Assembly (NCBI GenBank): GCA_023265015.1
Contig: JAHFUO010000001.1
Location: 7,091 to 48,371 of the forward strand
DNA: 41,281 nt
From: Acidobacteriota bacterium
Lineage (GTDB): Bacteria > Acidobacteriota > Vicinamibacteria > Vicinamibacterales > UBA2999
Direction of reading: 5' to 3'
This document shows positions 10,214-34,453 of the stretch, piece by piece; within the stretch, counting starts at the first letter, position 1; each line of letters opens with the position of its first letter. The notes under the pieces were generated by a model. That model ran no database searches, was not told where the DNA came from, and saw nothing but the letters and a program-made list of their open reading frames with translations. A program made the translations under genes and the position numbers.

Positions 10214-10224
10214 GGCGCGGCAAA

Positions 10225-11664
10225 TTATTGCGGCGATCTCTCCTCGCGAGCGCGATGAGCAGACACCCCACTCGGCCGGTGATTCCTGTCGACAACACGC
10301 GGTGGCGAGTCGTCTGATTTCTGTGCTGGGGATATCGCAATTGCAGCGAGCGTGGCGAACAGCAGCGCGTTCGCTGGCATGTGCAGGCTGAATTCCACTG
10401 TCTCCTGGATCCCGATCGCGACGAGTCCCACGGCAGCGCCGGCTCGCACCCAGTAGTCGTAGCTGTCGTCGCGTGCCGCGTTCAGGCTCCGGCGAATGGA
10501 GCTGGCCAGCAGCACCACAACGATGGCGGCAGGAATAGCCACCAACAATCCCCCTTCGGCCAGGAGCTGGAGATAGTCATTGTGGGCGTGGGTCATCCAG
10601 AACTCGAGCACATGCTTCTGATAGAAAAGCATCGCATCGGGATAGGTATTGAGACCGGTCCCGGTAATCGGGAAGTCCTGCACGACTTGCCAGCCATCGT
10701 GCCATGCGGCCACGCGACCCACGAGATCCGAGGTGTCAGCAAACCACTGCAGCAGCCGATCGACACCGCGCCAGCTCAGACTTGCGAGCAACAGTGCGCC
10801 GAGGGCGCTCACAACAATGGCTCGCCTTGCCAAGCCGATATGGCCTCTCCGAGCCATAAGCCACACAAAGCACCCCACGGCGCATGTGAAGCTCACAATA
10901 CCCGATCGCGACATCGTCCAGACCAGCGCAATCGCCATCACGATGATGCTGACGGCAATGAGGATCAATCGATTGGCCTCGGAGGTGGAGAGCCAGACAA
11001 TTCTGTTCCGCACGCCCGGCTTCACCGCCTTGAGCGCAACCTCGCTTCGCGCGCACAAGACCCCGATTGCCAGACACGTCGTCATCAGCATCCAGCCCGC
11101 GAAGTGATTGCGGTCGACGAACGGACCGAAACCGTTGCCGTTCGTCCCTTCCTCCGACCGCCAGAACCCGAACACGAGGCCGTTATTGTGCTCCCGGCCA
11201 AAGATGCCGACGAGGGCCAGCGGCACCGCGAACAGCATGAGGTGTCGCGGGAGCGCGCGCAGATCGCGTCGCGACAGAAAGCTTGGGAGCCCGATCAGGT
11301 ACAGCCCGAGCGTGGCCAATCCCAGCAGGGCAAGGCCGGTGGCGGCGGGATTGATTGAGAGTGGGTGAAGCGCAGTGCTGAGGGCGAACGTCAGACTGTA
11401 GCGAGATAGAAGAGCGGCCGCATGCGGACTGAGGAAATCAAGGGTGGTGCGAGGGACAGGTACCAGTTGTCCCCCGATCGCCAAGGCCACGAGCAATAGT
11501 CCGGCCGAGATGGTGCGAGCTTCACACGGAATCCCACGTTGGCGGACCAAGCCAGCCAGACCGATGGACGCTGCGACGACGAAAAGCGGAAGGTAGCCCC
11601 AGGGATAGACGGCGCCGAATGCCAGCGTCCCACAAACAATGAGGAGCGAAACGAGGACACTCAC
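10225..11664 (-). CDS. O-antigen ligase (Wzy_C)-family polytopic membrane protein
   Basis: Many TM segments, GPFVDRNHFAG, TMSRSG, R...W...PITGTGLNTY, HAHNDYLQLLAEGG. Confidence 0.88.
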   Translation of the reverse strand: MSVLVSLLIVCGTLAFGAVYPWGYLPLFVVAASIGLAGLVRQRGIPCEARTISAGLLLVALAIGGQLVPVPRTTLDFLSPHAAALLSRYSLTFALSTALHPLSINPAATGLALLGLATLGLYLIGLPSFLSRRDLRALPRHLMLFAVPLALVGIFGREHNNGLVFGFWRSEEGTNGNGFGPFVDRNHFAGWMLMTTCLAIGVLCARSEVALKAVKPGVRNRIVWLSTSEANRLILIAVSIIVMAIALVWTMSRSGIVSFTCAVGCFVWLMARRGHIGLARRAIVVSALGALLLASLSWRGVDRLLQWFADTSDLVGRVAAWHDGWQVVQDFPITGTGLNTYPDAMLFYQKHVLEFWMTHAHNDYLQLLAEGGLLVAIPAAIVVVLLASSIRRSLNAARDDSYDYWVRAGAAVGLVAIGIQETVEFSLHMPANALLFATLAAIAISPAQKSDDSPPRVVDRNHRPSGVSAHRAREERSPQ

Positions 11665-12381
11665 TCAGAGTGCGAACCCTGCCTGCGTGGCATCGCTGTA
11701 GAACATCTGTACCGTGTCGAGCGAGTAGTCCTCGAGATCGCGCCCCACCAGAGACAGCTTCTCGAGGATGTCGGTGGTGACCGTGATGATGTGGCAGCCG
11801 ATGGCATCGGCCTGGAAAATATTGAGTAACTCGCGCGGGCTCGCCCAGATCAGCTCGGCTTGCGGCGCGCGGGCGAGCCGCCGAACGGCCTCGGCCATCA
11901 ACGGCACAGGGTCAACGCCTGTGTCAGCGACACGGCCGGCGAATACGGACACGCATGCCGGCGCTCCTGAGCCCACGGCTTCGGCAACAGCAGTCACCTG
12001 ATCGAGAGTCATCAGGGCCGTCACGTTGACTCTCACGCCGTCGTTCGAGAGGCGGCGGACCAGCTCGTAGGACGGCTCGCGTCTGGTGTTGGTCACCGGT
12101 ACCTTGACGTATACGTTCTCGCCCCACCGTGCAATCTCGCGGGCCTGGCGCTCCATCTCCTCGAACTCGTCCGAGAAGACCTCGAACGAAATTGGCCTGT
12201 CGGGAATGGCCTCGAGGACCTGCTGGGCAAACGCGCGGTAATCGCTGACCCCCGCCTTTCGTATCAGCGTCGGGTTGGTGGTGAACCCTTTGATGTACGG
12301 CTTGCGGTACAACTCGAGCATGCTCGGCAGGTCAGCGCCGTCGGCGAAGATCTGGACAGCGAGTTGCTCAACGGGTGTCAC
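11665..12381 (-). CDS. tal: Transaldolase (small type)
   Basis: IFADGAD, GFTTNPT, ISFEV (acid/base Glu), VYVKVP (Schiff-base Lys), VNVT, SVFAGR (Phe), WASPRE. The Glu/Phe pattern fits transaldolase rather than fructose-6-phosphate aldolase. Confidence 0.93.
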   Translation of the reverse strand: MTPVEQLAVQIFADGADLPSMLELYRKPYIKGFTTNPTLIRKAGVSDYRAFAQQVLEAIPDRPISFEVFSDEFEEMERQAREIARWGENVYVKVPVTNTRREPSYELVRRLSNDGVRVNVTALMTLDQVTAVAEAVGSGAPACVSVFAGRVADTGVDPVPLMAEAVRRLARAPQAELIWASPRELLNIFQADAIGCHIITVTTDILEKLSLVGRDLEDYSLDTVQMFYSDATQAGFAL

Positions 12382-12607
12382 GAACCCTCGCTTCGTGAAC
12401 GGGAGAGAATCCAGTCGACTGCCTCGGGCAGCGAGTGAACGATGACGTCCGGGTGTTCGGGGCGTCGTTCCTGACAGCCCCAGTCGATGAAGATCGTCGT
12501 GCAGCCGGCGCGGCGGCCGGCCTCCTGCCGTCGCGAACGACGGGCCGGTTGATCACACCGTCCCGGTCGAGGAAGACGGCGCGACGACCGCCGACATCGA
12601 TTCCCAT
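12378..12607 (-). pseudogene. gmhB: GmhB-type HAD-IIIA sugar-bisphosphate phosphatase, internally deleted and frameshifted
   Basis: From ATG 12607: MGIDVGGRRAVFLDRDGVINRPVVRDG (HAD motif I). This is joined at about 12524/12525, in another frame, to EAGRRAGCTTIFIDW...PDVIVHSLPEAVDWIL (GmhB C-terminus). Only 230 nt remain. Confidence 0.85.
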
Positions 12608-13185
12608 TTTGTCTGCGCCGCCTTGAGCGCGGGGTGCGAGACCAGGAGATGCCACACGACAGCCTGAAACGCTTCCGCGTGCGGCGTGACGTTCTCCGGG
12701 TTGACCGTCGGCACAATCACACACGCGTCAGCGACCTGCGCCGTATAGCCTCCGTCGCGTCCGACCACCCCGACGATCTGCGCGCCGAGCTGTCGGCCGT
12801 ACTCCAGCGCGCGCACCAGGTTCGGGCTGACGTTGTGCTCGAGGCTGCCGCCCCCGACCGAGAACACGAACAACATGTCCTTCGCCTGCAGGCGGCTACT
12901 CTTGAGCCAGGCCGCGAAGACGTGCTCCCATCCCTCATCGTTGGTGCGCGCCGTCAGCTCGGAGACGTTGTCCACCGGCGTGTAGGCCTCGATGCCGGCG
13001 ATCTTCCTGAAATCGTTGACAGCATGTGAGCAATTCGCAGCGCTGCCGCCCATGCCGAGGAAAAAGAGGCGGCCGCCGCGCGCACGCAGGTCGACGAGCA
13101 ACGTGACGATCTTCTCGATCGCGGCCGTGTCGAGGCCGGCGATCACACGGGCCGCTTCGTCAAGATGCTGTTTGGCGTAGCTCAT
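12553..13185 (-). CDS. SIS-domain sugar-phosphate isomerase (GmhA-related)
   Basis: LFFLGMGGSAANCSHAVNDF, ELTARTNDEG, FSVGGGS, SPNLVRAL, GRDGG. ATG 13185 overlaps the upstream stop (ATGA). Confidence 0.88.
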   Translation of the reverse strand: MSYAKQHLDEAARVIAGLDTAAIEKIVTLLVDLRARGGRLFFLGMGGSAANCSHAVNDFRKIAGIEAYTPVDNVSELTARTNDEGWEHVFAAWLKSSRLQAKDMLFVFSVGGGSLEHNVSPNLVRALEYGRQLGAQIVGVVGRDGGYTAQVADACVIVPTVNPENVTPHAEAFQAVVWHLLVSHPALKAAQTKWESMSAVVAPSSSTGTV

Positions 13186-13895
13186 CGAGTGGCGATTCCC
13201 TTCGCAGCAAGGTACGCCCGTGTCTCTTCGAGCCCCTCTGGCGAACCGATCTCGTAGAAACGGTCCGGCACCTCGAAACCGACGAGATCGTCCGCTTCGA
13301 GCAGATCCTGGTAGATCGCGACGAGGTCGAACGCTTCGTCGTTGCCACGGCCGGCGCACGCCGACTTTCGGAAGGCGCCGAGGCCGGAGTCGATGTGACG
13401 CATTTCCGGCGTGCGGTGTTGCTTGTCATAGCGGATGATGCGGCCATCGGCATACAGCACGTTGCTGCGGTCCAGGCGATTCTCGTTGGGGTAGACGGTC
13501 ATCAGGCCGCTCTTGTCGCTCGCGAGGAACGTCCGTTCGATCGCGGCGTAGTCGCACTCCAGGTACGAATCGCCGTAGAGCACGAAGAACGGATCGCCGA
13601 GCTCGGGCAGCGCCCTGCGAATCGCCCCGCCTGTGCCCAGGGCTCGTGGGCCGTCAAACACATAGCGCACGTGCACGTCCCATCGGCCGCCGTCGCCCAG
13701 GGAGTCGGCGATCATTTCACCGAGGTGACCGAGCAGGAACGTGATGTCGGTGAGCCCGTGGCGGCGCAATAGCTCGATCTGGTGGACGGCAAACGGTTCG
13801 CCGGCAACTTCCACGAGCGATTTGGGAATTCCTTCCGTCACCGGCCGCAACCGCGTGGCCAGGCCACCGGCCAGGACGACAACCGGCAGGCTCAT
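13182..13895 (-). CDS. Sugar-1-phosphate nucleotidyltransferase (HddC-like)
   Basis: VVLAGGLATRLRP, IPKSLVEVAGEPF, LGTGGAI, VLYGDSY, FYEIGSPEGL. ATG 13895 (ATGA overlap). Confidence 0.92.
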   Translation of the reverse strand: MSLPVVVLAGGLATRLRPVTEGIPKSLVEVAGEPFAVHQIELLRRHGLTDITFLLGHLGEMIADSLGDGGRWDVHVRYVFDGPRALGTGGAIRRALPELGDPFFVLYGDSYLECDYAAIERTFLASDKSGLMTVYPNENRLDRSNVLYADGRIIRYDKQHRTPEMRHIDSGLGAFRKSACAGRGNDEAFDLVAIYQDLLEADDLVGFEVPDRFYEIGSPEGLEETRAYLAAKGIATR

Positions 13896-14872
13896 CCGAA
13901 CAGGACCTTCGTTCCCTCGAAGTCGAAGCGGAAGCGCACTTCCTCGAGTCCCGCCTTCGCCATCGCGGTGCGGAGCCGTTTGTGATCCTCGGAATAGAGA
14001 AGGAGGAACCCGCCCCCGCCAGCGCCTACCAGCTTTCCGCCGACGGCGCCATTCTTCCGGGCGAGCTCGTACCACTCATCGATTTGCGGGTTGCTCATGC
14101 CGTTCGATCGGCGCTTCTTGTGTTCCCAATGCTCGTGCATCAGCTCACCGAATAGCGCGGTCTTGCCGCCCTCGAGCGTCTGCATACTCCGCACACCAAT
14201 CTCCTTCACGTAGTGAAGGTTCTCGAGCATCTTCGTGTCGGACTGCTCAGTGCGCTGCTTCTGGTCTGAGAGAATCACGCCGGCGCTGCGCGAGAATCCC
14301 GTGAAGAACAGAAGCAGGTTGTCCTCGAGCTCGAAGAGGGCGTGCATGCTTGCCTTCAGCGGACGCGCATCCACGCTGCCATCCGGGTTGAAGGTGAAGC
14401 AGGTGACTCCGCCGTACGCCGCCGCATACTGATCTTGTTTGCCGATCGGCTCGCCAAGGCGATTGATCTCAATCTCGCACGCCAGTTCGGCCAGCTCATT
14501 CGGATGAAGCAACCGGCGCCGGTGCGCGTAGAGTGCCTTCAGCAGCGCGGTGGAGAAACTGCCGGACGAGCCAAGGCCGGTCCCGGCTGGAATATCGGCC
14601 AGCGTCGTGATTTCCACCTGTGGCGTCTGGAACCCGAGCATCTGGATCGCTTCGCGGATGATCGGGTGCTGGACTTCGTCGACCTTCTCAACATGTTCCA
14701 GCTTCGAGTACTTCAGATAGATGCCCTCTGTGAAGGGCCGCATCACCGTCACGTAGACATACTTATCAATGGCTGCCGTAATCAGGAAGCCGCCATGTTG
14801 CCGATAGTAAGACGGGAGGTCGGTTCCGCCGCCGCCCAGGGTGATTCGCAGGGGGCTGCGCGTGATGATCAT
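13892..14872 (-). CDS. GHMP-family sugar kinase (HddA-like)
   Basis: PLRITLGGGGTDLP, DIPAGTGLGSSG, IGKQDQY, GGKLVGAGGGGF. ATG 14872 (ATGA overlap). Confidence 0.93.
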   Translation of the reverse strand: MIITRSPLRITLGGGGTDLPSYYRQHGGFLITAAIDKYVYVTVMRPFTEGIYLKYSKLEHVEKVDEVQHPIIREAIQMLGFQTPQVEITTLADIPAGTGLGSSGSFSTALLKALYAHRRRLLHPNELAELACEIEINRLGEPIGKQDQYAAAYGGVTCFTFNPDGSVDARPLKASMHALFELEDNLLLFFTGFSRSAGVILSDQKQRTEQSDTKMLENLHYVKEIGVRSMQTLEGGKTALFGELMHEHWEHKKRRSNGMSNPQIDEWYELARKNGAVGGKLVGAGGGGFLLLYSEDHKRLRTAMAKAGLEEVRFRFDFEGTKVLFG

Positions 14873-15846
14873 CGCTGGCGATACACTTCCTCGACGATGG
14901 CAAGCGCGGCCCTCGCGTCGGCGAGACCGGCCGACGGTGCGCGGTCGAGCCGAATGTCCTCGAGGAACTCCGCGAACTCGAGCGCCCACGACTGGTCGCC
15001 GCCGGGATACTCCCAGCTCGTCGTCTCGGGCCGTCCCATCTCGGGCAACATCTTGTAGAACGTCAATCGTTCGACGCCGTAGCTGCCGCCCAGCCCTTCG
15101 ACGTGAAGTTTGGCGTCCTTCCCGTAGATCTCGAGGGAGAACAGGTTCTTCCACTCCGTGCAGCTGACGTGGAGGAACGCCGCCTGGTCAAGCGGCGTCC
15201 GCAGGAGGAGGAACGCGTTATCGTCCACCGGCATCTGCCAAAAGTAGGTGTGGGCAAACCCCTCGACCATCGTGAAGTCGCCGAGAAACCAGCGCGAGAG
15301 ATCAATCAGGTGCACACCTTGATCGATGAGCTCTCCGCCGCCGGAGAGCGCAGGATTGGCGCGCCATTCCTTGTCGTAGCCGATGCGCCCGCCGTGTCCG
15401 TAGCGCCCGCGGACGAACATCATCTCGCCGAGCGCGCCCGCCCCGAACAGCTCCCGTGCCTTCCGCAGCGCGGGATGATAGCGATGGTTGAAGCCGACAC
15501 GGACGAACCGGCGGTGCCGTCGCGCGGCCTCAATCACGGAATCAATCTCGACGACGGTCCGGGCCGCTGGCTTCTCGACAAGCACATGTTTCCCGGCCGC
15601 GACCGCGGCGCAGGAGATCTCCGCGAGCTTCTCGTTGGTCGTCGAAACGACGACGATGTCGACGTCGCTGCGGTCGATGACGGCACGCCAGTCGTCGCTC
15701 GGAACCGCGCCTGGAGCTGTACGGGCGAGCGCTTCCGCTCGCTCTTGCTTCACGTCGGCGCACGCGGTCAGTCGCGCGCCGGCCAGAGCCTCGGCCCGTT
15801 TGTGGCCATTCCGCCCGCATCCGATGATTGCGACACCAACACTCAT
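14869..15846 (-). CDS. Gfo/Idh/MocA-family oxidoreductase
   Basis: IIGCGRNG, GKHVLVEKP, VGFNHRY, SGGGELIDQGVHLIDL. Confidence 0.92.
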   Translation of the reverse strand: MSVGVAIIGCGRNGHKRAEALAGARLTACADVKQERAEALARTAPGAVPSDDWRAVIDRSDVDIVVVSTTNEKLAEISCAAVAAGKHVLVEKPAARTVVEIDSVIEAARRHRRFVRVGFNHRYHPALRKARELFGAGALGEMMFVRGRYGHGGRIGYDKEWRANPALSGGGELIDQGVHLIDLSRWFLGDFTMVEGFAHTYFWQMPVDDNAFLLLRTPLDQAAFLHVSCTEWKNLFSLEIYGKDAKLHVEGLGGSYGVERLTFYKMLPEMGRPETTSWEYPGGDQSWALEFAEFLEDIRLDRAPSAGLADARAALAIVEEVYRQR

Positions 15847-16709
15847 CGCGCTCCCCAGTCGAACCCGCGCTCCTTCGGCAGGATCCGACGTAGTGTGTAA
15901 ATGTCGGTCTTACGCAACTCATCGAGGTGTTTGCCGAACGTCTCCCACGGGTCCCACAAAGCGCTAATCAACTTCCCGGTTATGCCATCACTCTCAGAAG
16001 AAGCGAGAAATGCGCAGAGCGCGGCCGCACGCTCCGCCACTTCTGTCCCCTGGTGTCTGACCCCCAACGCGTCGTCGTATTCCTTTCGCCCGGTACGCTC
16101 AGCACCAGCCGCCAAGATGGCATCAGTCATCGCACTGTTCATCGGCCCTGGCGCAACGCAATTGACATCGATGCCTAGGGGCCGCACCTCGTCCGCCAGC
16201 GTTTCACAGAACTTGACCATAGCGGCCTTTGCCGCGCCATATGCCGTAAACCTGGGACGCGGACGGCCGGCACCGCCGCCCGAGATGCTGATGATCTTGC
16301 CTCCGCCACTCGTGGCGATCAGCGGTACGCAGGAGCGGCAGAGGTTGACAACCGACAGGAGATTGACCCGAAACGCACATTCCCACTCAGCCCAATCGTT
16401 CTCCCAGACCGGTCCGATTGGCCCCTGCAGCGCGGCGTTGTTGACCAGGACCGACACCCCGCCGAGGAGCCGGTGCGCCTGCTCGATGATCCTGTTGGGG
16501 GTCTCCTCATCGCCAAGGTCGCACGTCATAGCGTGTACCCGCTGATCGGGACGCACCCCCAACTCGCCAATCACCTGCTTGAGCTTGGCCTCGGACCGCG
16601 CCACCAGCAGCAGATCCGCGCCTTGTGCCCAGAACGTCCGCGCGACAGTGGCTCCGAGGCCGCGCGACGCGCCGGTGATGATGCAGCGCCGGCCCGCCAA
16701 CTTGGTCAC
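15843..16709 (-). CDS. Short-chain dehydrogenase/reductase
   Basis: ITGASRGLG, LVNNAA, YGAAK (YxxxK), VNCVAPG. GTG 16709 overlaps the upstream stop. Confidence 0.92.
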   Translation of the reverse strand: MTKLAGRRCIITGASRGLGATVARTFWAQGADLLLVARSEAKLKQVIGELGVRPDQRVHAMTCDLGDEETPNRIIEQAHRLLGGVSVLVNNAALQGPIGPVWENDWAEWECAFRVNLLSVVNLCRSCVPLIATSGGGKIISISGGGAGRPRPRFTAYGAAKAAMVKFCETLADEVRPLGIDVNCVAPGPMNSAMTDAILAAGAERTGRKEYDDALGVRHQGTEVAERAAALCAFLASSESDGITGKLISALWDPWETFGKHLDELRKTDIYTLRRILPKERGFDWGAR

Positions 16710-17680
16710 GCACGTTCCTCCAACAGCCACGGATTCGCTTGCAGGTAGTCGAGCGTCCTGATGATGCCTTCGCGAATCGACAGCTTCGGTTTCCAGCCGA
16801 GCGATCGAATCTTGGCAGTGTCGAGGAAGATGAAGGGGCTGTCGCCGATCCATCCACGCTCGCCGCCTGTGTAGGTTCGCAGTGGGTCGAGGCCGAGGTG
16901 GCCAGCGATCCAGCCGATCGAGTCGTTCACGTGACAGTACTCTTCGGTGCCGAGATTGAAGATGTTCACCTTGTCCTGCGCCTTTTCGATGGCGGTGAGC
17001 ATGGCGTCGATGCAGTCTTGAACGTAGAGGTACGATTTGCGCTGGCGGCCGTTGCCAAGTACGCGGAGCTCACACTGGTTCGCTCGCAAGCTCTGATAGA
17101 AGTCGAAAACGTGGCCGTGCGAGTACCTCTCGCCGAGGATCGACACGAATCGAAAAATGTAGCCCTGGAATCCGAACCCCTCACAGTAGGCTTGAATCAA
17201 CCCCTCACAGGCAAGCTTCGACGCACCGTAGAGTGAGGTCTGCACCGGGAACGGTGCGGCCTCTGGCGTGGGGAACACGTCCGGCTCACCGTAAATCGAT
17301 CCCGTCGAGGAGAAGGCGATCCGCCGAATGCCGCTGGCGCGCATGGCCTCGAGCACGTTGAACGTGGCGATCGTGTTTTGCTCGAGGTCTCGTCGCGGAT
17401 GCTTGGTTCCGAAACGGACGTCGGCACTGGCTGCCAGGTGGAACACGAAGTCGCAGCCCTTCATCGCCGTCGTCATCAGCGGCAGTTCGAGAACGTCGCC
17501 GCGAATAAGGCGGAACGACGGCGAGGGCGATGCAACAGTAAGAAACCGCTCCTGGCCGGTCGAGAAGTTGTCGTAGCCGACGACCTGGTGGCCGCCCGCA
17601 AGGAGGCGGTCCGCCAAGTTGCTGCCAATGAAGCCGCCTGCACCCGTAATGAAACACGCGCCCGCTTCCATTTGCTTCAC
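16706..17680 (-). CDS. NAD-dependent nucleotide-sugar epimerase/dehydratase
   Basis: ITGAGGFIGS, VFHLAA, FSSTGSIYG, YGASK. Start is GTG 17680 or ATG 17671. Confidence 0.92.
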   Translation of the reverse strand: MKQMEAGACFITGAGGFIGSNLADRLLAGGHQVVGYDNFSTGQERFLTVASPSPSFRLIRGDVLELPLMTTAMKGCDFVFHLAASADVRFGTKHPRRDLEQNTIATFNVLEAMRASGIRRIAFSSTGSIYGEPDVFPTPEAAPFPVQTSLYGASKLACEGLIQAYCEGFGFQGYIFRFVSILGERYSHGHVFDFYQSLRANQCELRVLGNGRQRKSYLYVQDCIDAMLTAIEKAQDKVNIFNLGTEEYCHVNDSIGWIAGHLGLDPLRTYTGGERGWIGDSPFIFLDTAKIRSLGWKPKLSIREGIIRTLDYLQANPWLLEERA

Positions 17681-17751
17681 GAACCAGTCGTACGTCTGGG
17701 TGATTCCATCCCGCCGGTCAGCGTGATGATGTGGCGGCCGATGTAGTCGGC
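17681..17751 (-). pseudogene. Mosaic relic: transaldolase fragment plus an epimerase-like C-terminal fragment
   Basis: 17716-17751 encodes ADYIGRHIITLT and matches tal 11776-11811 (ADAIGCHIITVT) at 30/36 nt. 17713-17681 encodes RDGITQTYDWF, which resembles the last helix of extended-SDR epimerases. Confidence 0.55.
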
Positions 17752-17782
17752 ATCGAGATCACGGCCGCCGTGGCAGGTCCAG

Positions 17783-19102
17783 TCATGCCGCTGCGTGTGA
17801 CGCAGGTCCACGTCGAAGGTCGGCCAGGCGTTCGAGAATGAACGACTCGTGGGCCGCGAGGATCTTCCGTTGGTCGAAGTGCTTCTCGGCGTACGCACGA
17901 TTGCGCTGACCCATCGCAGCCAGCCTGTCAGATTCGGCACGCATCAGCGCCTCGACACCTCGGACGAGGGCGACAGGATCTTCCGGAGCCACCAGCATCC
18001 CACCATCAGCCTCCCGGAGAATCTCGGCGCCCTGGCTCGACGGGCTGACCGCAGCGAGCACCGGACGCCCTGCGGCCATGTAGGTCAGGAGTTTCGACGG
18101 TACGACCGTGTCCTTGACCGTCGAGAGCTGATTCAACAGCAAGACGTCCGCCGCGGCGAACACCTGGGCAAGGCTCTCTTCCGGCTGAAATGCCAGCAGT
18201 CGCACGGTGTCACCAAGGTCGTGCTGTTTTACGAGCCGACCGAGCCCGACGCGCGTCTCACCGTCGCCTACCAGGACCCACGCGATGGGTCGTGAGTCGC
18301 TCCGGCAGGTGCGGAGTCGAAGGGCGGCCTCCACGACATGCGTCAGTCCCTGTTTCAGACCCATGCTGCCCGCAAAGAGGACGACGAATGCGTCGGCTGG
18401 AATGCCGAGTCGCTGTCGGTATTCCGGCCGGAAAGGGAGCGGCCTGATCTGATCAAGATCGATAGGGCTTCGGATGAGGCGAATCCGCTCGGTCGGGTAC
18501 CCTCGCGCGATCAGCGCCTCGGCAAAGCTGCGGCACAGTACGCTGGCACCCGCGGCGGGCAGATAGGCTGCGAACTCAAATCGCTCGAGCGCCCGCTGTA
18601 CACAACCAGCGCGAACAATCCCGACGTCGGCTGCCGCCTGCGCAGCCAGATCGTTGACGTTGACGAAATACGGCGCGCCGCAAAGCTTGGCGATGCCGCG
18701 TGCCAGCATGGCGATGGCTGGTTGCGCGCCGATATAGAGCACTGCGTCCGGCCGTGTTCTCCGCTTCAACAGCTCGAACAACACGCTTGTGGCGGCGACC
18801 GCACAGAAACTGCATTCCATCAACAGGCGCTGCCATGCGGCTCCGGGCCGCCTCGGAATGAAATGGGTGACACGCTTCAGCAGTACACCGCCCTGGACAC
18901 TCTCGCTGCAGAAGTGACCTCGGTACTCCGCCCATCGCTTCCATCGCGGGGCGAATGGGAATCCAGTGATGACGGTGACGTCATGGCCACGTGTGGCGAG
19001 GTACTCGGCCAGAACCGTCGCGTGTGGTGCGAATCCCGTCGGTTCTGGGGTGTAGTTCAGCGTGAGAATCCAGACGCTGAAGGCAGAATTCAAAGCGCGC
19101 AT
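17783..19102 (-). CDS. GT4 glycosyltransferase, WcaI-like
   Basis: LNYTPEPTG, GHDVTVITGFP..P.W, FAGSMGLKQGL, VPSKLLTYMAAGRPV. Confidence 0.9.
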   Translation of the reverse strand: MRALNSAFSVWILTLNYTPEPTGFAPHATVLAEYLATRGHDVTVITGFPFAPRWKRWAEYRGHFCSESVQGGVLLKRVTHFIPRRPGAAWQRLLMECSFCAVAATSVLFELLKRRTRPDAVLYIGAQPAIAMLARGIAKLCGAPYFVNVNDLAAQAAADVGIVRAGCVQRALERFEFAAYLPAAGASVLCRSFAEALIARGYPTERIRLIRSPIDLDQIRPLPFRPEYRQRLGIPADAFVVLFAGSMGLKQGLTHVVEAALRLRTCRSDSRPIAWVLVGDGETRVGLGRLVKQHDLGDTVRLLAFQPEESLAQVFAAADVLLLNQLSTVKDTVVPSKLLTYMAAGRPVLAAVSPSSQGAEILREADGGMLVAPEDPVALVRGVEALMRAESDRLAAMGQRNRAYAEKHFDQRKILAAHESFILERLADLRRGPASHAAA

Positions 19103-19869
19103 TATTGTGTGGCCAGAAACGCGTAGTTGTGATTATCAAGAAACTGCGCAGACGACTCACCGGGCTCAGGATTTATCGGAACGGCCTCGCCCGAGTATCC
19201 GGCCTTGATGAGTATTTCCAGGAGAGGAGAGCGGTCGACCCCGCCATGCAGCTCGAGCACCAGAGCAGGTCGGTGCAGGCGAAGCATTTCACGCATCCCA
19301 TCGAGTACGTCTAGCTCCATCCCTTGGACATCTATTTTTACGCCATGGACCACTGCGTTACCTGCATTCAACCGCGGCCACAGCCAGTCAAAGCGTGCGA
19401 TGTGGATCGATTCCCACCGAGCTTGGTGTCGCTGACCCGTCAGGGTCATGTCAGCCATCCCGCGCGTGACGGGCAGCCGAGTGACCTCGAGCGATTCCGG
19501 CGATCCCAATCCGATCGGAACGACGGTGATCCAATCGAGCTGATTTATGTGCATCGTCTGTGCAATACACCCGGCGCTGCTTAAGACTGGCTCAAAGGTA
19601 AACACTCGTCCCGCGGGCCCGACGAGTTCAGCGAGCGCCAGAGCCGTGTACCCGTAATGTCCGCCGACATCGAGCCATGTCTCTCCGCGGCGCGCGTGAG
19701 CAGCGAACCAGTGCAGTAATGGACGTTCGGTTCGGCCGGTAATCGCGGCGGGATAGTCGTGCCACGAGGTCACGATTCGTCGCCCCCGGAGCGGACCGGC
19801 AAGAATCCGCCGCGGCGCGAGTCCGCTGGGCAAGGCGCGTCGCAGCAGGTCCTTTACCCAGGTGGTCAC
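19102..19869 (-). CDS. FkbM-family methyltransferase
   Basis: LDVGGHYGY, VGPAGRVFTFEP, VKIDVQGMELDVLDG. GTG 19869 (GTGA overlap). Confidence 0.9.
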   Translation of the reverse strand: MTTWVKDLLRRALPSGLAPRRILAGPLRGRRIVTSWHDYPAAITGRTERPLLHWFAAHARRGETWLDVGGHYGYTALALAELVGPAGRVFTFEPVLSSAGCIAQTMHINQLDWITVVPIGLGSPESLEVTRLPVTRGMADMTLTGQRHQARWESIHIARFDWLWPRLNAGNAVVHGVKIDVQGMELDVLDGMREMLRLHRPALVLELHGGVDRSPLLEILIKAGYSGEAVPINPEPGESSAQFLDNHNYAFLATQ

Positions 19870-20798
19870 GGCGTCGGCGCGGCGGCGGACCCGCGAGAAA
19901 TCGTCGCGGTACTCGTCTGTCGTAGTAGGTCGATCAGGGTGATCTGACCCACGTCGATTTCGTGGCGAAGTTCGCCGATCTTGATGTCGACCAGCAGTCG
20001 AAACCAGAACGCCTGGAGGAAGTGGTAGACAAATCCGTTCCACCCGTCCAGGAAACCGAGTCTGAACACGTACCGGTAAATGAAGAACAGCATGGGCCGG
20101 ATATAAAGCGGCATCCGGTACCACCAGTTCTTGAACCAGATCATCCGTTCATCTGGACTGCCGATCGGGCTCGGCCTGAGGTGCGACGACCAACACAGTG
20201 CCCCTTCGGCCCGCAGGACCTCTTCCAGTGCCATGCGGTGAGCAAACCTCTGGTGTTTATCGATCCAGAAGTCGATCTGGAATTCTTTCTGATTGCTTTC
20301 GATCATCTGGCCCGACAGGCGACCGATCCTTCCGTCGACGATCAATCGAAAGTCGACGAGCTCTGAATCATCCACGCGAACGCGGCTACGTCGCACTAAG
20401 TGGAGATAAAACGCTTTCAGCCCCCTCACCCGCCGATTTCGAAAATAGTGAACATGTCGACTGTAATACCCGTGAAAACAACCCGCGTCATTCGCGAGTG
20501 TCGCCGCTATCTGAGTTTTCAGCTCCGTGGACACGATGTTGTCGGCATCGAGCACAAGCAACCAATCATGTCGCCACGCGACCTCGCCCATACCCCATTG
20601 CAACTGCGTGCGATGATCGACGTACGGGCGAAATACGGTCCTGACGCCGTATTCCGCGCAAATCGCCAGCGTGCGGTCGGTGCTTCCGCTGTCAACGACA
20701 ACGATGTCATGGGCCCAGCCTGCGACGCTATCGAGACATCGAGCGATGTTCAGCTCTTCGTTGAAAGTCAGAATCAGAATGGACACAGGAGCGCTCAA
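19866..20798 (-). CDS. GT2 glycosyltransferase (WaaE/KdtX-like)
   Basis: VSILILTFNEE, VVVDSGSTD, LVLDAD, YVFRLGFLDG. Probable TTG start at 20798 overlapping the upstream stop. Confidence 0.9.
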   Translation of the reverse strand: MSAPVSILILTFNEELNIARCLDSVAGWAHDIVVVDSGSTDRTLAICAEYGVRTVFRPYVDHRTQLQWGMGEVAWRHDWLLVLDADNIVSTELKTQIAATLANDAGCFHGYYSRHVHYFRNRRVRGLKAFYLHLVRRSRVRVDDSELVDFRLIVDGRIGRLSGQMIESNQKEFQIDFWIDKHQRFAHRMALEEVLRAEGALCWSSHLRPSPIGSPDERMIWFKNWWYRMPLYIRPMLFFIYRYVFRLGFLDGWNGFVYHFLQAFWFRLLVDIKIGELRHEIDVGQITLIDLLRQTSTATISRGSAAAPTP

Positions 20799-21940
20799 TG
20801 GACGAGACTCCGATAAAACGTGGTCAACCTCGCGATACTCGCCGGCCATGCAAAAGATGTTGCAACGAGTTGCTTTGCCCGTGACGCCCGTCGGCATGCT
20901 GATTGACTATCCTCTATCGAACAGGCGATCGCCTCAGCCACGGCTACCGGGTTGGCCAACGTGACTAGCCCGGCGTCGTTCGCCAGGATCTCGTCGCAGA
21001 TGTTGACGTGTTCCGACAAGATGACCGGCACTCCGGCGGCCATCGCCTCGACAAGGGCAAAGCCAAAGTTTTCGGTGTACGAAGGGAGCACGAATACCGA
21101 CGCCGACGAAAACGCCGCCAGCTTCATGGCACCATGAACCATTCCCGTCAGTGTCACGTCACGCTCAAGACCGGCGTCCGCGATCAGTTGGCGGACGACC
21201 TTTCCGTAACCCGGTGCTTCTGGTCCTGCGAGAACGAGGTGTAGTCCGCCGACACGCTTCCGCGCGAGGTCAAACGCACGGAGCAGCACGTCGATGCCCT
21301 TCTTCGGATGGAGCCGGCTCAGGAAAAGAACCACGCGCACGTCTGTGCCGATGTCGAACGCTGCCCTGAACAGGTCGCCTGGCGGCATTGCGGAGAACGG
21401 AGCTGTATCGATGCCCGGAGAGAGAACGACGCCCGGCGCCTTGATTCGCATCGGCTCGTGCGCGAGCGTCATTTCCGCTTTCGTCGTGTAGTGAATCGCG
21501 GCGGCACCGTCGAGAGCGCGGCGCTCCAGCATTTCGTGGTACAGCCACTTTTGCACGCGGTGACGTTTTCTCAGCCACGGGTCGAAGGATCCGTGCGGCC
21601 GGATCACATAAGGAACCGACGCCTTCCGAGCCGCGTTCGCGGCCGCGAGCGTATGGTGGAGGAAGACGCTGTGGATGTGAACGACATCGTAGTTTCGCGA
21701 CGCCTCAGAAAGAGCCGCAGCCATCTGGGGCGACCATGCCCAGCGACGCCACGTTGTTTTGAAGATCCGCAGATCGACACCCGGAATGTCGTGCGGAGTG
21801 CGGTCCGGCTCGCCGTGGTCTCCGGCGAAGAGAGATACGTCGTGGCCATCGGCCGCCAGATATCGGCAGGTCTCGGAGGCAACAAGCGAAGGGCCGCCAT
21901 TTTCCGGCAGGAGATTCGCGATCACGTGGAGAATTCGCAC
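20795..21940 (-). CDS. GT4 glycosyltransferase
   Basis: MRILHVI..L....GGP, FLSRLHPKKG, VFVLPSYTENFGFALVEAMAAGVPV. Confidence 0.93.
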   Translation of the reverse strand: MRILHVIANLLPENGGPSLVASETCRYLAADGHDVSLFAGDHGEPDRTPHDIPGVDLRIFKTTWRRWAWSPQMAAALSEASRNYDVVHIHSVFLHHTLAAANAARKASVPYVIRPHGSFDPWLRKRHRVQKWLYHEMLERRALDGAAAIHYTTKAEMTLAHEPMRIKAPGVVLSPGIDTAPFSAMPPGDLFRAAFDIGTDVRVVLFLSRLHPKKGIDVLLRAFDLARKRVGGLHLVLAGPEAPGYGKVVRQLIADAGLERDVTLTGMVHGAMKLAAFSSASVFVLPSYTENFGFALVEAMAAGVPVILSEHVNICDEILANDAGLVTLANPVAVAEAIACSIEDSQSACRRASRAKQLVATSFAWPASIARLTTFYRSLVH

Positions 21941-21949
21941 TGTGCGATT

Positions 21950-22786
21950 TCAGGCGGGAAGGGTCCGAGCGTCGGGCCTGGCCACTCCAGACGCCGTCCT
22001 GCTTCCTTGCGGGCGGCGGAGCCATTCCATTTCGTACGACTCGTCTGCCAGAAATCGAACGATGTCCTGCGTCGACGTGCCATAGCATTCGTATAACGGA
22101 TCGGACATCGCGTTGAACATCAGGAGCGGGCGCCAGCGTCGTAAGGAACCGACGGCACCGCGCAAAACAAGCAGATCCGCGCCCTGTGCATCGATCTTGA
22201 TGAGGTCCAGGCGCGGCCATCTTCCGGACAGGTCGTCCAGCGAGACGACCGGGCATTCCGCCGGAACGGTCGCCGGGTCCAGGGCTGTATTCACAAGGGA
22301 TCCTCGCGACGAATTTGGACCTTCGAAGTTGAAGAACTGACCGGTCCGTGACTGGTCGGCGACCGCGGCACGGTAGGGTGTGACGTGCGCCAGATGATTC
22401 AACGCCATGTTCCGAACGAGCTTCGCGTATTCCACCGGCGACGGCTCGAACGCGTGGACGGTTCCTTCGGGGCCGACAGCATCCGCCATTGCGATCGAGA
22501 AATCGCCGATGCCGGCGCCAATGTCGACGGCAACACCGCGTTCTGGTAGCGAGCGTCTCACAAGTGACAGACTTGCCGGGTTATAGGCGCCATAGAAGAA
22601 TAGATACCATCCGATATAGGTGGAGGTGTCCACTTCAAGCGAGTGACTGCCCAGGAACCTGATTGACACCACTGACCCTCGCGCGCGAGGGCCTGCGTAG
22701 GGAAACAGCTTCCTCAACACCCAGCCCGTGCCTCGATGCGGAAAACGCGTCGAATATTGTCGAGCGACGCGCGCCAGCCCGGTCAT
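21950..22786 (-). CDS. FkbM-family methyltransferase
   Basis: VDIGAGIG, VGPEGTVHAFEP, LDLIKIDAQGADLLVLRG. ATG 22786 preferred over TTG 22801. Confidence 0.88.
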   Translation of the reverse strand: MTGLARVARQYSTRFPHRGTGWVLRKLFPYAGPRARGSVVSIRFLGSHSLEVDTSTYIGWYLFFYGAYNPASLSLVRRSLPERGVAVDIGAGIGDFSIAMADAVGPEGTVHAFEPSPVEYAKLVRNMALNHLAHVTPYRAAVADQSRTGQFFNFEGPNSSRGSLVNTALDPATVPAECPVVSLDDLSGRWPRLDLIKIDAQGADLLVLRGAVGSLRRWRPLLMFNAMSDPLYECYGTSTQDIVRFLADESYEMEWLRRPQGSRTASGVARPDARTLPA

Positions 22787-22790
22787 GAGA

Positions 22791-22853
22791 TCATCCGCCA
22801 ACCATCTGTTCGTACGCTTTCAGCGTATTCGCAGCGCAAGCGTCCCACGTGAG
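22791..22853 (-). pseudogene. C-terminal relic of a deleted GT4 glycosyltransferase
   Basis: Intergenic DNA reads LTWDACAANTLKAYEQMVGG*, the typical GT4 terminal helix (compare FAWPASIARLTTFYRSL in the neighbouring GT4). Its TGA lies 4 nt before the FkbM ATG. Confidence 0.6.
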
Positions 22854-22866
22854 TGTGCTGTCGCGT

Positions 22867-24000
22867 TCAGGCGCGCGGCCTCTGAGTCGAGAGTATCTGC
22901 CGGAGCGCATCTGTAAAGACCGTGAACGCAAACGTCTGCTCGACATGGCGTCGGGCGGCTCCCTTCATCGCCCTCCGCATGAGGGGCGCTTCAGCAAGCC
23001 GCTCGACGGCGTCGGCAATATCCTCCGGGTCTTCCGGGCGCACGAGAAATCCAGTCTCGCCGTCGACGATCGACTCAGCAGAGCCATCGCACCTGCTCGT
23101 AATCGCGGGTTTCCCGGATGCCTGCGCTTCCAGCACGACCAGCGGAATGCCTTCGCCCTGTGGCAACGCGCCGAGCGTGAACGCGCTGACGAGCACGAAC
23201 ACATCGCATCCGCGATACGTGGCCGGCAGGTCGGCTTCGGGAACCCTGCCAAGGAACGTCACCCGCTCTTTCACTCGCAACGTCGTCGCCAGCCGCTCGA
23301 GTCTTCCCCGATCCGGACCATCGCCGCCGATCGTGTATGTGACCGACACACCACGGTCGGCGAGAAGCGACATCGCCGTCAACACCGCGGCATGTCCTTT
23401 CGAACGTCCAGGCAGCAGGCGGGACACGGTCAGCAGGCGCAGAGGTCGCGACGGGGGTTCTTCCACGGCATCGTCGTGGTCAGGCGTGAATCTCGTTGTA
23501 TCGACGCAGTCGCGCAGCAAGTCCACGCGTCCGGCGAGCTCCGGGTACGCCTGCTGAAGGTATTGCCTCGTGAACTCGCAGTCCGACACGACCCGGTCTG
23601 CACGTCGCAGCGCCAGGCGACGGCCCAGCGGCAACGCGTTCCACACTTCAATTGCGTAAACATTGACCCAGTACCGTGCCCCCGGGAAAGCTCCCAACAG
23701 GCGCGCCAACGGGGCGAGGTTAACGTGGTCGCAGATAATTAGGTCGGGACGCCACCGCAGCGCGTGCCACATCGTTTCGATCGAAAAGATCGCGCGCGCA
23801 ATCCACCCCCGCCCGCGGCCGATTACGGCAAGCGGCACCGGATCGTCGAATCCATGAGCGACCCGTTGTCCGAACGAGCAGACCCGCACGCCCCCCGGGC
23901 AGATCGCATTCAAGGCTCTGATTTCATACCGGCTGTAACGTTGAATCCCGCCGTGAGCGAATAGATCAATCGAAAGGTACAGGACGCGCGAGGGGATCAT
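22867..24000 (-). CDS. GT4 glycosyltransferase
   Basis: HGGIQRY, LLTVSRL...KGH, GEGIPLVVLEAQASGKP, IVDGETG. Confidence 0.92.
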   Translation of the reverse strand: MIPSRVLYLSIDLFAHGGIQRYSRYEIRALNAICPGGVRVCSFGQRVAHGFDDPVPLAVIGRGRGWIARAIFSIETMWHALRWRPDLIICDHVNLAPLARLLGAFPGARYWVNVYAIEVWNALPLGRRLALRRADRVVSDCEFTRQYLQQAYPELAGRVDLLRDCVDTTRFTPDHDDAVEEPPSRPLRLLTVSRLLPGRSKGHAAVLTAMSLLADRGVSVTYTIGGDGPDRGRLERLATTLRVKERVTFLGRVPEADLPATYRGCDVFVLVSAFTLGALPQGEGIPLVVLEAQASGKPAITSRCDGSAESIVDGETGFLVRPEDPEDIADAVERLAEAPLMRRAMKGAARRHVEQTFAFTVFTDALRQILSTQRPRA

Positions 24001-24002
24001 CG

Positions 24003-25112: not shown

Positions 25113-25127
25113 AACTTCCTCACTTCG

Positions 25128-25727
25128 TTACATTGGACGGGTGCGTCTCGTGGGTCTGATCGCATGCACCTCGTAGCTACTGGTCCACATCCAGTGAAGG
25201 GGCGGAAACCGCAGAATCCAGGGGTTCAGATGTACGAAGTTAAGCCTGGATGAGAGCGGTACGCCTCCCATTCGCCGGACGTTGATGACCGTAAAGCCAG
25301 AATCGGCAACGAGCTCACGGGCGGTCGCTTCCGTAAATCCCCGGACGTGTGTGTAGTCAGACCACGTCCGTCGCCCGAACTCGCAGATCACGGACACGAG
25401 CAGCGTTCCGCCGGGCTTGAGTACGCGGTGGACCTCCTGTAAAAGGACCCACGGCTGCCGTAGGTGCTCGAGCACGTCTTTTGCTATTACGGCATCGAAT
25501 TGGTCCGAATTGAATGGAAGTTGTTCCCCGGAATCAAGATCCCAGTGTCTCGCAATCGCAAACTGATTGGCTACCGTGACCGCCGTTTGGTCACAATCCA
25601 ATCCGTACACGCGCGACGGTCGAATAGAGAACCTCGCTATGTCGCCAGCCCCACAACCGAGATCCAATACGGTCTGGGCCGTTTCAGGTATGAACGACCA
25701 GTAATACGCAGCAACGACCTTATTCAT
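25128..25727 (-). CDS. Class I SAM-dependent methyltransferase
   Basis: VLDLGCGAG, LPF..DQFDAV, DVLEHL, RVLKPGG. Confidence 0.9.
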   Translation of the reverse strand: MNKVVAAYYWSFIPETAQTVLDLGCGAGDIARFSIRPSRVYGLDCDQTAVTVANQFAIARHWDLDSGEQLPFNSDQFDAVIAKDVLEHLRQPWVLLQEVHRVLKPGGTLLVSVICEFGRRTWSDYTHVRGFTEATARELVADSGFTVINVRRMGGVPLSSRLNFVHLNPWILRFPPLHWMWTSSYEVHAIRPTRRTRPM

Positions 25728-25736
25728 TGCGGTACA

Positions 25737-26807: not shown

Positions 26808-26814
26808 TCCCTGA

Positions 26815-28260: not shown

Positions 28261-28273
28261 CTGAGTTGACGTC

Positions 28274-31243: not shown

Positions 31244-31273
31244 CGGGAGATCACGGCACCCGCGCCACGGGTG

Positions 31274-34425: not shown

Positions 34426-34453
34426 AGACGATCGTCGCTGCAAATGTCCGTCC

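Follow-up and report, generated by a model that had tools for sequence, protein, structure and literature searches.

A transaldolase-containing nucleotide-sugar cassette in an exopolysaccharide locus of a groundwater acidobacterium, with a proposed role in higher-sugar synthesis

The 41,281-nucleotide stretch of DNA analysed here (the window) comes from a groundwater acidobacterium, and its minus strand carries, between positions 11665 and 17680, a run of eight genes for which we found no published description. Pfam and NCBIfam models place these genes in the eight families that a preliminary description had listed (epimerase, SDR, Gfo/Idh/MocA oxidoreductase, GHMP kinase, nucleotidyltransferase, SIS isomerase, HAD phosphatase and transaldolase), and the overlapping junctions of the coupled run proposed there are confirmed as well. 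The run lies within a probable Wzx/Wzy-type exopolysaccharide locus. From its sequence the cassette would be a transaldolase-primed NDP-higher-sugar pathway that feeds this exopolysaccharide, and we lean slightly towards an octose as the sugar made. The SIS-transaldolase pairing, the fusions of transaldolase with HAD or with SIS and the HAD deletion described below are new here. The genes concerned are as follows:

10225..11664, minus strand: Wzy_C / O-antigen-ligase-like membrane protein, directly downstream of the transaldolase gene (PF04932, 80.1 bits)
11665..12381, minus strand: dedicated transaldolase, 238 aa, TIGR02134 family, last of the run (PF00923, 149.4 bits)
12378..12607, minus strand: remnant of a GmhB-type HAD phosphatase (DNA and protein comparison with an intact orthologue)
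12553..13185, minus strand: divergent SIS ketose/aldose phosphate isomerase, 210 aa, GmhA-like subfamily
13182..13895, minus strand: sugar-1-phosphate nucleotidyltransferase, 237 aa (PF00483)
13892..14872, minus strand: GHMP sugar-phosphate kinase, HddA-like, 326 aa (PF00288 and PF08544; ATGA overlap)
14869..15846, minus strand: Gfo/Idh/MocA NAD(P) oxidoreductase (PF01408 and PF22725; ATGA overlap)
15843..16709, minus strand: classical short-chain dehydrogenase/reductase, 288 aa from the GTG at 16709 (PF00106, 159.5 bits)
16706..17680, minus strand: extended-SDR NDP-sugar epimerase, GalE-like, first of the run (PF01370, 162.9 bits)
17783..35704, minus strand: exopolysaccharide assembly/export genes, upstream of the cassette (Pfam and NCBIfam)
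24003..25112, minus strand: DegT/DnrJ/EryC1 sugar aminotransferase (PF01041, 389.1 bits)

Six of the junctions in the run are four-base start/stop overlaps. From the epimerase to the SIS gene these read, in order, GTGA, ATGA, ATGA, ATGA and ATGA, and the HAD/transaldolase junction is again GTGA. The start of the next gene abuts the transaldolase stop (TGAGTG), and the SIS and HAD reading frames overlap both in the window and in a relative with an intact HAD gene; translational coupling is therefore real. The SDR start used here is the one that overlaps the epimerase stop (GTGA), and alignment with its relatives begins only at about residue 50 of the maximal ORF. Five of the seven related loci fetched have the same eight genes with HAD intact. 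A wider survey covered the best 80 of 593 confirmed matches, from many phyla, ranked by their similarity to a single, arbitrarily chosen family member (P0165) and so not a random draw; the type with GHMP kinase, Gfo, SDR and epimerase occurs in 11 of these 80. Because of this recurrence among both related and surveyed loci, the arrangement is not a product of chance.

We infer the steps of the proposed pathway from enzyme family, synteny and co-occurrence. The dedicated transaldolase would transfer a three-carbon unit from fructose-6-P or sedoheptulose-7-P to an aldose phosphate, with ribose-5-P as the favoured acceptor and octulose-8-P as the product. The SIS isomerase would convert the ketose phosphate to an aldose phosphate, the GHMP kinase would phosphorylate C1, the GmhB-type HAD phosphatase would take off the terminal phosphate, and the nucleotidyltransferase would form the NDP-sugar. 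The Gfo/Idh/MocA, SDR and GalE-like enzymes would next alter the stereochemistry of the ring, the upstream DegT enzyme possibly adding an amino group, and the glycosyltransferases of the locus would consume the product. The epimerase has GalE-1 (3EHE, 276.5 bits) as its nearest solved structure and is 68–81% identical to its orthologues in five related cassettes. The structures nearest to the Gfo/Idh/MocA protein are a 'putative dehydrogenase' (6A3F, 97.3 bits), scyllo-inositol dehydrogenase, DgpA and a sugar 3-ketoreductase, and its top NCBIfam model, levoglucosan dehydrogenase, scores far under the cut-off. The DegT aminotransferase lies outside the run, about 6.3 kb upstream on the same strand, and is a possible partner of the cassette oxidoreductases, a link that we infer; 10 of the best 80 of 593 loci have a DegT homologue no more than 8 kb from the transaldolase.

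The cassette transaldolase scores above the TIGR02134 cut-off (344.7 versus 281.95 bits) and keeps all 25 invariant columns of alignment A1, including the VKVP lysine, FAGR and WASPRE, presumably the catalytic and phosphate-binding residues. The earlier suggestion that it is a dedicated enzyme and not the genome's only transaldolase proved right: a separate housekeeping transaldolase (TIGR00875, 290.8 bits versus a cut-off of 245.95) is found on contig C117, surrounded by carboxylase genes in a central-metabolism context, and is 28% identical to that of the cassette. A second, higher-scoring transaldolase is also present elsewhere in all five of the other genomes checked.

The family search returned 4716 representative proteins at E <= 0.001. 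Of the best 80 of 593 loci, 72 have a cassette-type SIS gene no more than 8 kb from the transaldolase; among those with at least 3 kb on both sides the figure is 56 of 58. In the same best 80 of 593, HAD is present in 67, GHMP kinase in 49 and an HldE-like enzyme in 10, and the GHMP kinase and HldE-like types of activation never occur together; the 13 loci without HAD within 8 kb make the phosphatase the most dispensable member. The reverse search, from SIS to transaldolase, drew on three genome samples with 52 different genomes that have the SIS subfamily: a transaldolase-family gene is within 2 kb of SIS in 44 and elsewhere in 6 more (50 of 52 in all, related genomes in these counts not being independent), and none was found in G482 or in G663 (88% completeness). 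The two genes also decay together, both being interrupted by stops or cut in G097, G413, G488 and G538, and in G417 the transaldolase alone is broken up by frame shifts. Among 13 long forms scanned, four are HAD-transaldolase fusions (P0122, P0126, P0136 and P0146) and one is a transaldolase-SIS fusion (P0128). Some of the co-occurrence of SIS and transaldolase could be due to operon linkage and to horizontal transfer of the genes as a block. The strict pairing provides a simple testable handle, in that a pair of enzymes tried with both candidate acceptors would tell a seven-carbon from an eight-carbon product.

The SIS protein had been noted to depart from the canonical GmhA motif, and the motif in question, GMGGSAANCSHAVNDF, is indeed present and marks a subfamily, being conserved across 72 sequences. 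The protein has six additional residues at the position of GmhA's STSGKS. It scores 52 bits against the GmhA equivalog model TIGR00441 (cut-off 209.45), and no gene in the whole genome reaches that cut-off, the best being at 53.9 bits.

In lincosamide biosynthesis the acceptor of the transaldolase LmbR is ribose-5-P, and LmbZ is a member of the Gfo/Idh/MocA family. According to excerpts of PMC4351081 and PMC12945683, the GDP-octose route of Streptomyces lincolnensis and S. caelestis runs from the LmbR/CcbR transaldolase through the LmbN isomerase and LmbP kinase to the LmbK phosphatase and LmbO guanylyltransferase, and then to LmbM, LmbL, LmbZ/CcbZ and LmbS. Within those excerpts (PMC4351081; PMC12945683 Table 1) it is the only characterised pathway with the five-family logic of the cassette, and the family-for-family match to LmbR/N/P/K/O/M/Z/S drawn in the preliminary description is borne out by the excerpted part of PMC4351081. 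Both systems hold transaldolase, SIS, GHMP kinase, HAD (broken in the window) and nucleotidyltransferase in one cluster, and both have an epimerase and a Gfo/Idh/MocA-type oxidoreductase, with a DegT aminotransferase further off in the window. On the other hand the window is a surface-polysaccharide locus and not an antibiotic cluster; the cassette's neighbours there are exopolysaccharide assembly and export genes, and the lincosamide hallmarks (amino-acid branch, condensation and mycothiol-related genes) were not found among them. In addition the window isomerase has no visible carrier-protein fusion, the place of LmbL in the Lmb cluster is taken here by a classical SDR, the aminotransferase lies apart and the phosphatase is deleted. 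The likeness to the Lmb proteins is one of enzyme families. No Streptomyces is among the matches listed in the genome-contig search (best 80 of 593), and P0165, considered as an Lmb/Ccb candidate, turned out to be an orphan.

A less probable but serious alternative is that the same module, in the same role, makes a heptose: the transaldolase would boost or channel sedoheptulose-7-P (from fructose-6-P and erythrose-4-P) to the GmhA-like isomerase, and an NDP-D-glycero-D-manno-heptose derivative would be remodelled by the three oxidoreductases. The cassette shares the isomerase/C1-kinase/terminal phosphatase/nucleotidyltransferase logic of the GDP-D-glycero-alpha-D-manno-heptose pathway (GmhA, HddA, GmhB and HddC, of capsule and S-layer clusters), whose enzymes are the nearest solved structures for the isomerase (GmhA, 46 bits) and the kinase (PDB 3K85, 172.7 bits; WcbL, 157 bits) and near-best for the nucleotidyltransferase (5XHW, 'putative 6-deoxy-D-mannoheptose pathway protein', 67 bits, after MurU 4Y7T, 77.4 bits). 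This closeness of the isomerase and kinase, and to a lesser degree of the nucleotidyltransferase, to heptose-pathway structures counts against an octose. The intact HAD orthologue passes HAD-IIIA domain models, finds its best matches in GmhB models and contains a CxH...CxC segment, which we take to be a mark of GmhB. Heptoses are common and widespread in bacterial glycans, and no plain aldo-octose from a bacterial surface glycan is known to us; TIGR02134 itself was defined on transaldolases thought to perform ordinary pentose-phosphate chemistry. However, sedoheptulose-7-P belongs to central metabolism, and a further transaldolase is already encoded in this genome; to our knowledge the characterised GDP-heptose clusters need none, whereas here one is coupled into the pathway. 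Its retention in 50 of the 52 SIS-subfamily genomes, sometimes fused to SIS, would be hard to explain if it were redundant. The window SIS also has a remodelled loop where GmhA has STSGKS, and the scores fall far short of the cut-offs of all four canonical equivalog models: beside the SIS score given above, the kinase reaches 164.3 bits against NF049969 (HddA, cut-off 600), the nucleotidyltransferase 55.9 against NF049965 (HddC, cut-off 300; the MurU model scores higher, 106.9 versus its cut-off of 250), and the intact HAD orthologue 72.8 against NF050049 (cut-off 250) and 123.6 against NF006506 (cut-off 178). The cassette enzymes are thus not canonical GmhA, HddA, HddC or GmhB by the curated NCBIfam models, as had been proposed, and we consider an eight-carbon product somewhat more likely than a seven-carbon one.

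The HAD gene, previously called broken, has suffered a frame-shifting deletion of about 331 bp relative to the intact 184-aa orthologue of relative G033 (L041:6348-6902). An N-terminal fragment (FLDRDGVIN) runs out of frame into a C-terminal one at a junction between 12524 and 12539, so that only residues 1–25 and 132–181 are left and the middle of the enzyme is gone; neither frame of the remnant has a Pfam or NCBIfam match. A second assembler gives the same deletion (a Logan contig of run X1, gapless over 11665-12999), and the deletion form is the dominant contig in that run, at depth 10.2. The phosphatase step is genetically dead in this strain, and with its loss the pathway may not run there. 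The strain would either use a paralogous phosphatase or be losing the pathway; the genome has three further GmhB-like HAD genes, on contigs C164 (48% identical to the intact orthologue), C110 and C157. It is possible, though we think it rather unlikely, that the cassette is a decaying relic in this strain, blocked by the phosphatase loss, with its other seven genes intact only because the deletion is recent. The extent of the deletion and its dominance in run X1 speak for such decay, as do the decayed SIS and/or transaldolase genes of the five genomes named above. Against it, the seven other genes are open with all the four-base overlaps kept, the additional GmhB-like genes are available, HAD is lacking near 13 of the best 80 of 593 loci, and E. 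coli gmhB mutants are leaky. Related strains in the same groundwater samples have the intact allele, and the deletion beside it is a small natural experiment on the dispensability of this step.

It is very improbable that the cassette transaldolase is a housekeeping pentose-phosphate enzyme lying beside sugar-activation genes by chance, although it passes the cut-off of a family named simply 'transaldolase', since it overlaps the upstream gene by four bases, recurs with SIS across many phyla, is found fused to HAD or SIS, is patchily spread (18 of the 151 genomes of the order) and coexists with the separate transaldolase in its central-metabolism context.

The broader form of our preferred octose reading, on which we are evenly divided, is that the cassette makes an NDP-aldo-octose for a cell-surface polymer, that octoses made by the transaldolase route are a widespread, overlooked class of surface sugar across many phyla and not a lincosamide curiosity, and that the sugar branch of lincomycin arose by recruitment of a primary cassette of this kind. 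The class would extend from Acidobacteriota, Actinomycetota, Chloroflexota and Planctomycetota as far as the Legionellales. Should the product be an octose, or some other sugar that does not derive from central sedoheptulose-7-P, thousands of database entries that now carry heptose-pathway or 'transaldolase' labels would be an unrecognised surface-sugar family; such cassettes would also be an evolutionary source for the lincomycin sugar pathway and would supply new enzymes for making rare NDP-sugars.

The surface-polysaccharide setting first suggested for the cassette is supported by its neighbours. The upstream region encodes four GT4 and one GT2 glycosyltransferases, two FkbM methyltransferases and a further methyltransferase, the DegT protein, a Wzy-like protein, a flippase, a priming phosphotransferase (TIGR03025, 329.5 bits), Wzc, Wza and an outer-membrane barrel. 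Among the exosortase-system markers of a PEP-CTERM-associated locus, the model for the XrtA-associated ATPase reaches 240.3 bits (cut-off 324.5) and that for EpsL 34 bits (cut-off 275), and no exosortase was found among the scanned ORFs.

The same genome has a second SIS-HAD-transaldolase module, on contig C164, which shares this core with the window (SIS 58% and transaldolase 65% identical; its HAD is the 48% paralogue mentioned above). Its activation enzyme is an HldE-like cytidylyltransferase-PfkB fusion in place of the window's GHMP kinase and nucleotidyltransferase, and its tailoring genes encode Gfo, a UDP-glucose-dehydrogenase-like enzyme, a methyltransferase, a split transketolase and four epimerase-family proteins. 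The C164 transaldolase falls in another clade than that of the window (SH-aLRT 99).

The genome that contains the window (on contig C65) comprises 3.18 Mb in 175 contigs and is 92% complete. The cassette occupies the minus strand at 11665-17680, and its eight genes are, in order from 17680 to 11665:

Genes of the cassette (all minus strand; 11665-17680)
GalE-like extended-SDR epimerase (first gene, from 17680)
Classical SDR
Gfo/Idh/MocA oxidoreductase
GHMP kinase
Nucleotidyltransferase
12553-13185, GmhA-like SIS isomerase
12378-12607, remnant of a GmhB-type HAD phosphatase
11665-12381, transaldolase

Six junctions are 4-base start/stop overlaps (GTGA, ATGA, ATGA, ATGA, ATGA and, between the HAD and transaldolase genes, GTGA). 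The SIS and HAD genes also overlap, likewise in a relative whose HAD gene is intact, and the start of a Wzy_C-type gene lies directly 3' of the transaldolase stop. The cassette is the distal portion of a long same-strand array that encodes Wza, Wzc, a priming phosphotransferase, a flippase, polymerase-like proteins, four GT4 and one GT2 proteins, two FkbM methyltransferases, another methyltransferase and a DegT aminotransferase. The preliminary description, which saw an eight-gene run inside a surface-polysaccharide locus, is thus correct in every point (families, junctions and neighbours).

The cassette resembles the GDP-heptose pathway, yet by the membership tests applied it falls outside it, as the following scores show.

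Scores against NCBI curated equivalog models, in bits (model cut-off in brackets)
SIS isomerase, GmhA model: 52 (209)
Kinase, HddA model: 164 (600)
Nucleotidyltransferase, HddC model: 56 (300)
Intact orthologous HAD, alpha-specific GmhB model: 73 (250)
Intact orthologous HAD, beta-specific GmhB model: 124 (178)

Across the whole genome no gene reaches the GmhA cut-off. Among solved structures, the SIS protein is nearest to GmhA (46 bits) and the kinase to 3K85 (173 bits) and WcbL (157 bits), while the nucleotidyltransferase matches MurU (77 bits) and 5XHW, deposited as a putative 6-deoxy-D-mannoheptose pathway protein (67 bits). Since the cut-offs are missed and the nearest structures are heptose enzymes, the cassette proteins are distant cousins of the heptose pathway and not members of it. 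In an alignment of the SIS protein with Burkholderia GmhA, the His of GGSAxxxxH is kept, the next Glu is replaced by Asp, and the STSGKS stretch gives way to a loop six residues longer, SVGGGSLEHNVS; we take this His/Glu pair and the STSGKS stretch to be the metal ligands and phosphate loop of GmhA. Seventy-two sequences from many phyla share the whole signature, including the motif pointed out in the preliminary description.

The nearest named homologues of the window transaldolase are in Vicinamibacterales MAGs (81% identity). The preliminary description was to be given up if this were the genome's only transaldolase, which it is not, since there are three transaldolase-family genes (in the window and on contigs C164 and C117) and the one on C117 is separate. 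The latter scores 290.8 bits against TIGR00875 (cut-off 245.95) and has acyl-CoA carboxylase genes, not glycan genes, as its neighbours. The window and C164 enzymes score 344.7 and 346.1 bits, respectively, against TIGR02134 (cut-off 281.95), and each is only 28% identical to the C117 enzyme. The window transaldolase is therefore dedicated and distinct from the C117 gene. The C164 gene belongs to another higher-sugar operon of this genome:

Second higher-sugar operon (contig C164, locus L009)
5783-17964, SIS, intact HAD, transaldolase, two epimerases, HldE-like fusion, Gfo/Idh/MocA, nucleotide-sugar dehydrogenase, epimerase, methyltransferase, split transketolase, epimerase

Its HldE-like enzyme has a reversed domain order (cytidylyltransferase, then PfkB kinase), and an ABC transporter is found nearby. 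The corresponding proteins of the two modules are 58-65% identical. In a tree of 82 transaldolases, all 11 HldE-linked sequences, that of C164 included, fall in one clade (SH-aLRT 99), and the window gene lies in another group of 36 rows, 23 of them GHMP-linked. With the pairs this divergent and the transaldolases in different clades, we reject a recent duplication as the origin of the two modules.

The lincosamide pathway offers a guide to the function of such a gene set. One paper (PMC4351081) lists four functions as confirmed, namely lmbR as transaldolase, lmbN as C8 isomerase, lmbK as C8 phosphatase and lmbO as C8 guanylyltransferase, and gives the C8 kinase lmbP as predicted; according to another (PMC12945683), GDP-octose is converted to GDP-lincosamide by LmbM, LmbL, CcbZ and CcbS. 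The Gfo/Idh/MocA protein and dehydrogenase of the C164 operon may parallel LmbZ and LmbL. The window cassette would operate in the manner of the lincosamide sugar branch, without belonging to that antibiotic system.

We lean towards an octose as the product of the cassette. The only studied pathway with its gene set yields GDP-octose, and a pathway based on sedoheptulose-7-P needs no transaldolase, of which the genome already has one; moreover, genomes hardly ever lose the dedicated transaldolase, and in some proteins it is joined to the enzymes that come next. These points tell against a heptose, which we consider possible but the less probable product, even though the nearest solved relatives of the cassette enzymes are heptose enzymes and no plain octose is known to us from the surface glycans of bacteria, which likewise counts for seven carbons. 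A product that is neither an octose nor a heptose seems improbable.

Whether the SIS subfamily ever occurs without a transaldolase of its own bears on the choice between eight and seven carbons, and this reverse question was put to three samples.

Transaldolase in genomes that carry the SIS subfamily (SIS genomes; transaldolase within 2 kb; elsewhere; none)
Order sample: 15; 13; 2 (G047, G062); 0
Actinobacterial class: 17; 15 (2 only as decayed genes); 1 (6.4 kb off); 1 (G482)
Phylum, genomes not yet counted: 20; 16 (4 only with the Pfam model); 3; 1 (G663, 88% complete)
All samples: 52; 44; 6; 2

In the class sample, centred on an 'Actinomycetes' locus, the genomes are small and nothing points to Streptomyces among them. 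In only two of the 52 genomes was no transaldolase found, but related genomes are not independent and part of the SIS-transaldolase pairing comes from operon linkage. Each of five genomes checked with the Pfam model has a higher-scoring transaldolase elsewhere. Several loci carry damaged genes:

Damaged SIS and transaldolase genes (genome:contig:coordinates)
G097:C2:177142-178884, SIS and transaldolase both with stops or cut
G413:C8:202426-204256, SIS and transaldolase both with stops or cut
G488:C7:262381-264058, SIS and transaldolase both with stops or cut
G538:C24:22718-24647, SIS and transaldolase both with stops or cut
G417:C13:12227-14094, transaldolase alone in frame-shifted pieces

We read these stops, cuts and frame shifts as decay, and some of them could be sequencing error in the assemblies.

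Judged from the protein families and two characterised pathways with the same logic, the most likely order of reactions is one in which the transaldolase would open the pathway and the SIS isomerase would act next, followed by a C1 kinase, a terminal phosphatase and the nucleotidyltransferase; after redox and epimerase tailoring the sugar would be built into the repeat unit, which would be exported by the Wzx/Wzy route. For the Gfo/Idh/MocA protein the top solved match, 6A3F, carries no more than the label of a putative dehydrogenase; among the solved structures with a name, the nearest include scyllo-inositol dehydrogenase, DgpA, a glucuronide 3-dehydrogenase and a sugar 3-ketoreductase, and the best NCBIfam match, far under the cut-off, is levoglucosan dehydrogenase. 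These relatives make it plausible that a ring carbon is oxidised and then either reduced by the SDR or aminated by the distant DegT protein. The cassette epimerase is GalE-like according to its nearest solved structure.

Within the order the cassette-type transaldolase is a patchy accessory gene: among 151 genomes sampled it is present at 57% identity or more in 18, and eight more have only 32-35% matches. Relatives in a set of 1.84 billion representative proteins number 4716 at E <= 0.001 and 729 at E <= 1e-30. Thirteen of the best 150 are long forms, namely four HAD-transaldolase fusions, one transaldolase-SIS fusion, one with a partial HAD piece, three with unrelated domains (two homing-endonuclease, one radical-SAM-like) and four with nothing else. 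In the two homing-endonuclease forms, P0180 and P0222, the gene calls join the transaldolase to GIY-YIG/NUMOD3 domains, which suggests phage-borne copies or merged gene calls.

A scan of 185,579 species genomes gave at least 598 matched stretches, of which the best 80 were examined; these are ranked by likeness to P0165 (a high-GC family member from the representative protein search that has no near kin) and so are not a random sample, and the scan query led only to metagenome-assembled genomes. The best 80 span Acidobacteriota, Actinomycetota, Chloroflexota, Verrucomicrobiota, Planctomycetota, Myxococcota, Pseudomonadota (including Legionellales and Methylococcales), Elusimicrobiota, Bacteroidota and others. 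In 72 of them (and in 56 of the 58 flanked by 3 kb or more on each side) a cassette-type SIS gene is found no more than 8 kb from the transaldolase; 67 have a HAD gene, 49 a GHMP kinase and 10 an HldE-like enzyme, the last two never together. The window's combination (GHMP, Gfo, SDR and epimerase) occurs in 11 of these 80 loci and the HldE, Gfo and dehydrogenase type in nine. In one relative (L043, G020:C10, 3321-7602) the cassette is split by about 4 kb between kinase and nucleotidyltransferase, with a duplicated C-terminal piece of the kinase. In the open-access literature searched we found no paper that places a transaldolase in a surface-glycan cassette of heptose or octose type; the related work there consisted of lincosamide papers only. 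New here are the reverse co-occurrence test, the fusion tally, the genome with two modules and a strain-level phosphatase deletion.

This deletion is seen by comparison with the closest cassette-bearing relative, G033 (locus L041), where the gene between SIS and transaldolase encodes an intact GmhB-type HAD of 184 aa. Residues 1-25 (FLDRDGVIN) and 132-181 are kept in the window, about 331 bp are gone, and the two surviving pieces are in different frames, with the junction between 12524 and 12539; the HAD gene is indeed broken, as first described. It is intact in all seven related loci fetched (153-185 bits), and at the same threshold the window gives no HAD match. The runs that contain the stretch are groundwater metagenomes from a single study. 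A Logan contig of one of them, X1 (an independent assembly, 2474 nt, depth 10.2), spans 11665-12999 without a gap, so the deletion is not one assembler's quirk, and an artefact is rejected on this ground, though X1 may be the window's own source sample. In X1 and X2, contigs of lower depth that are about 90% alike diverge from the window sequence at 12525-12526 and run on into sequence that, by translation, encodes the missing part of an intact HAD (stretches without read cover in runs X2-X4 were left out of the evidence). The same groundwater samples thus also hold related strains in which the gene is intact, and the phosphatase step is polymorphic in the population. The genome has three other GmhB-like genes, on C164, C110 and C157, whose products are 48%, 35% and 32% identical to the G033 orthologue, respectively.

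Upstream of the export genes, 36473-37513 encodes a sigma-54 activator-like protein with a weak AAA+ match (50.7 bits) and without a receiver domain, whose best NCBIfam matches are far under their cut-offs. No exosortase was seen among the window ORFs scanned. Downstream of the glycan genes (2-8140 and 9215-10114) lie genes for a TPR protein, an AAA_22/SPOR ATPase, a secretin, three ORFs without a family, an MshE-type T2SS/T4P ATPase and a second AAA_22 ATPase, the best match of which is the XrtA/PEP-CTERM-associated ATPase model (240 bits against a cut-off of 324.5).
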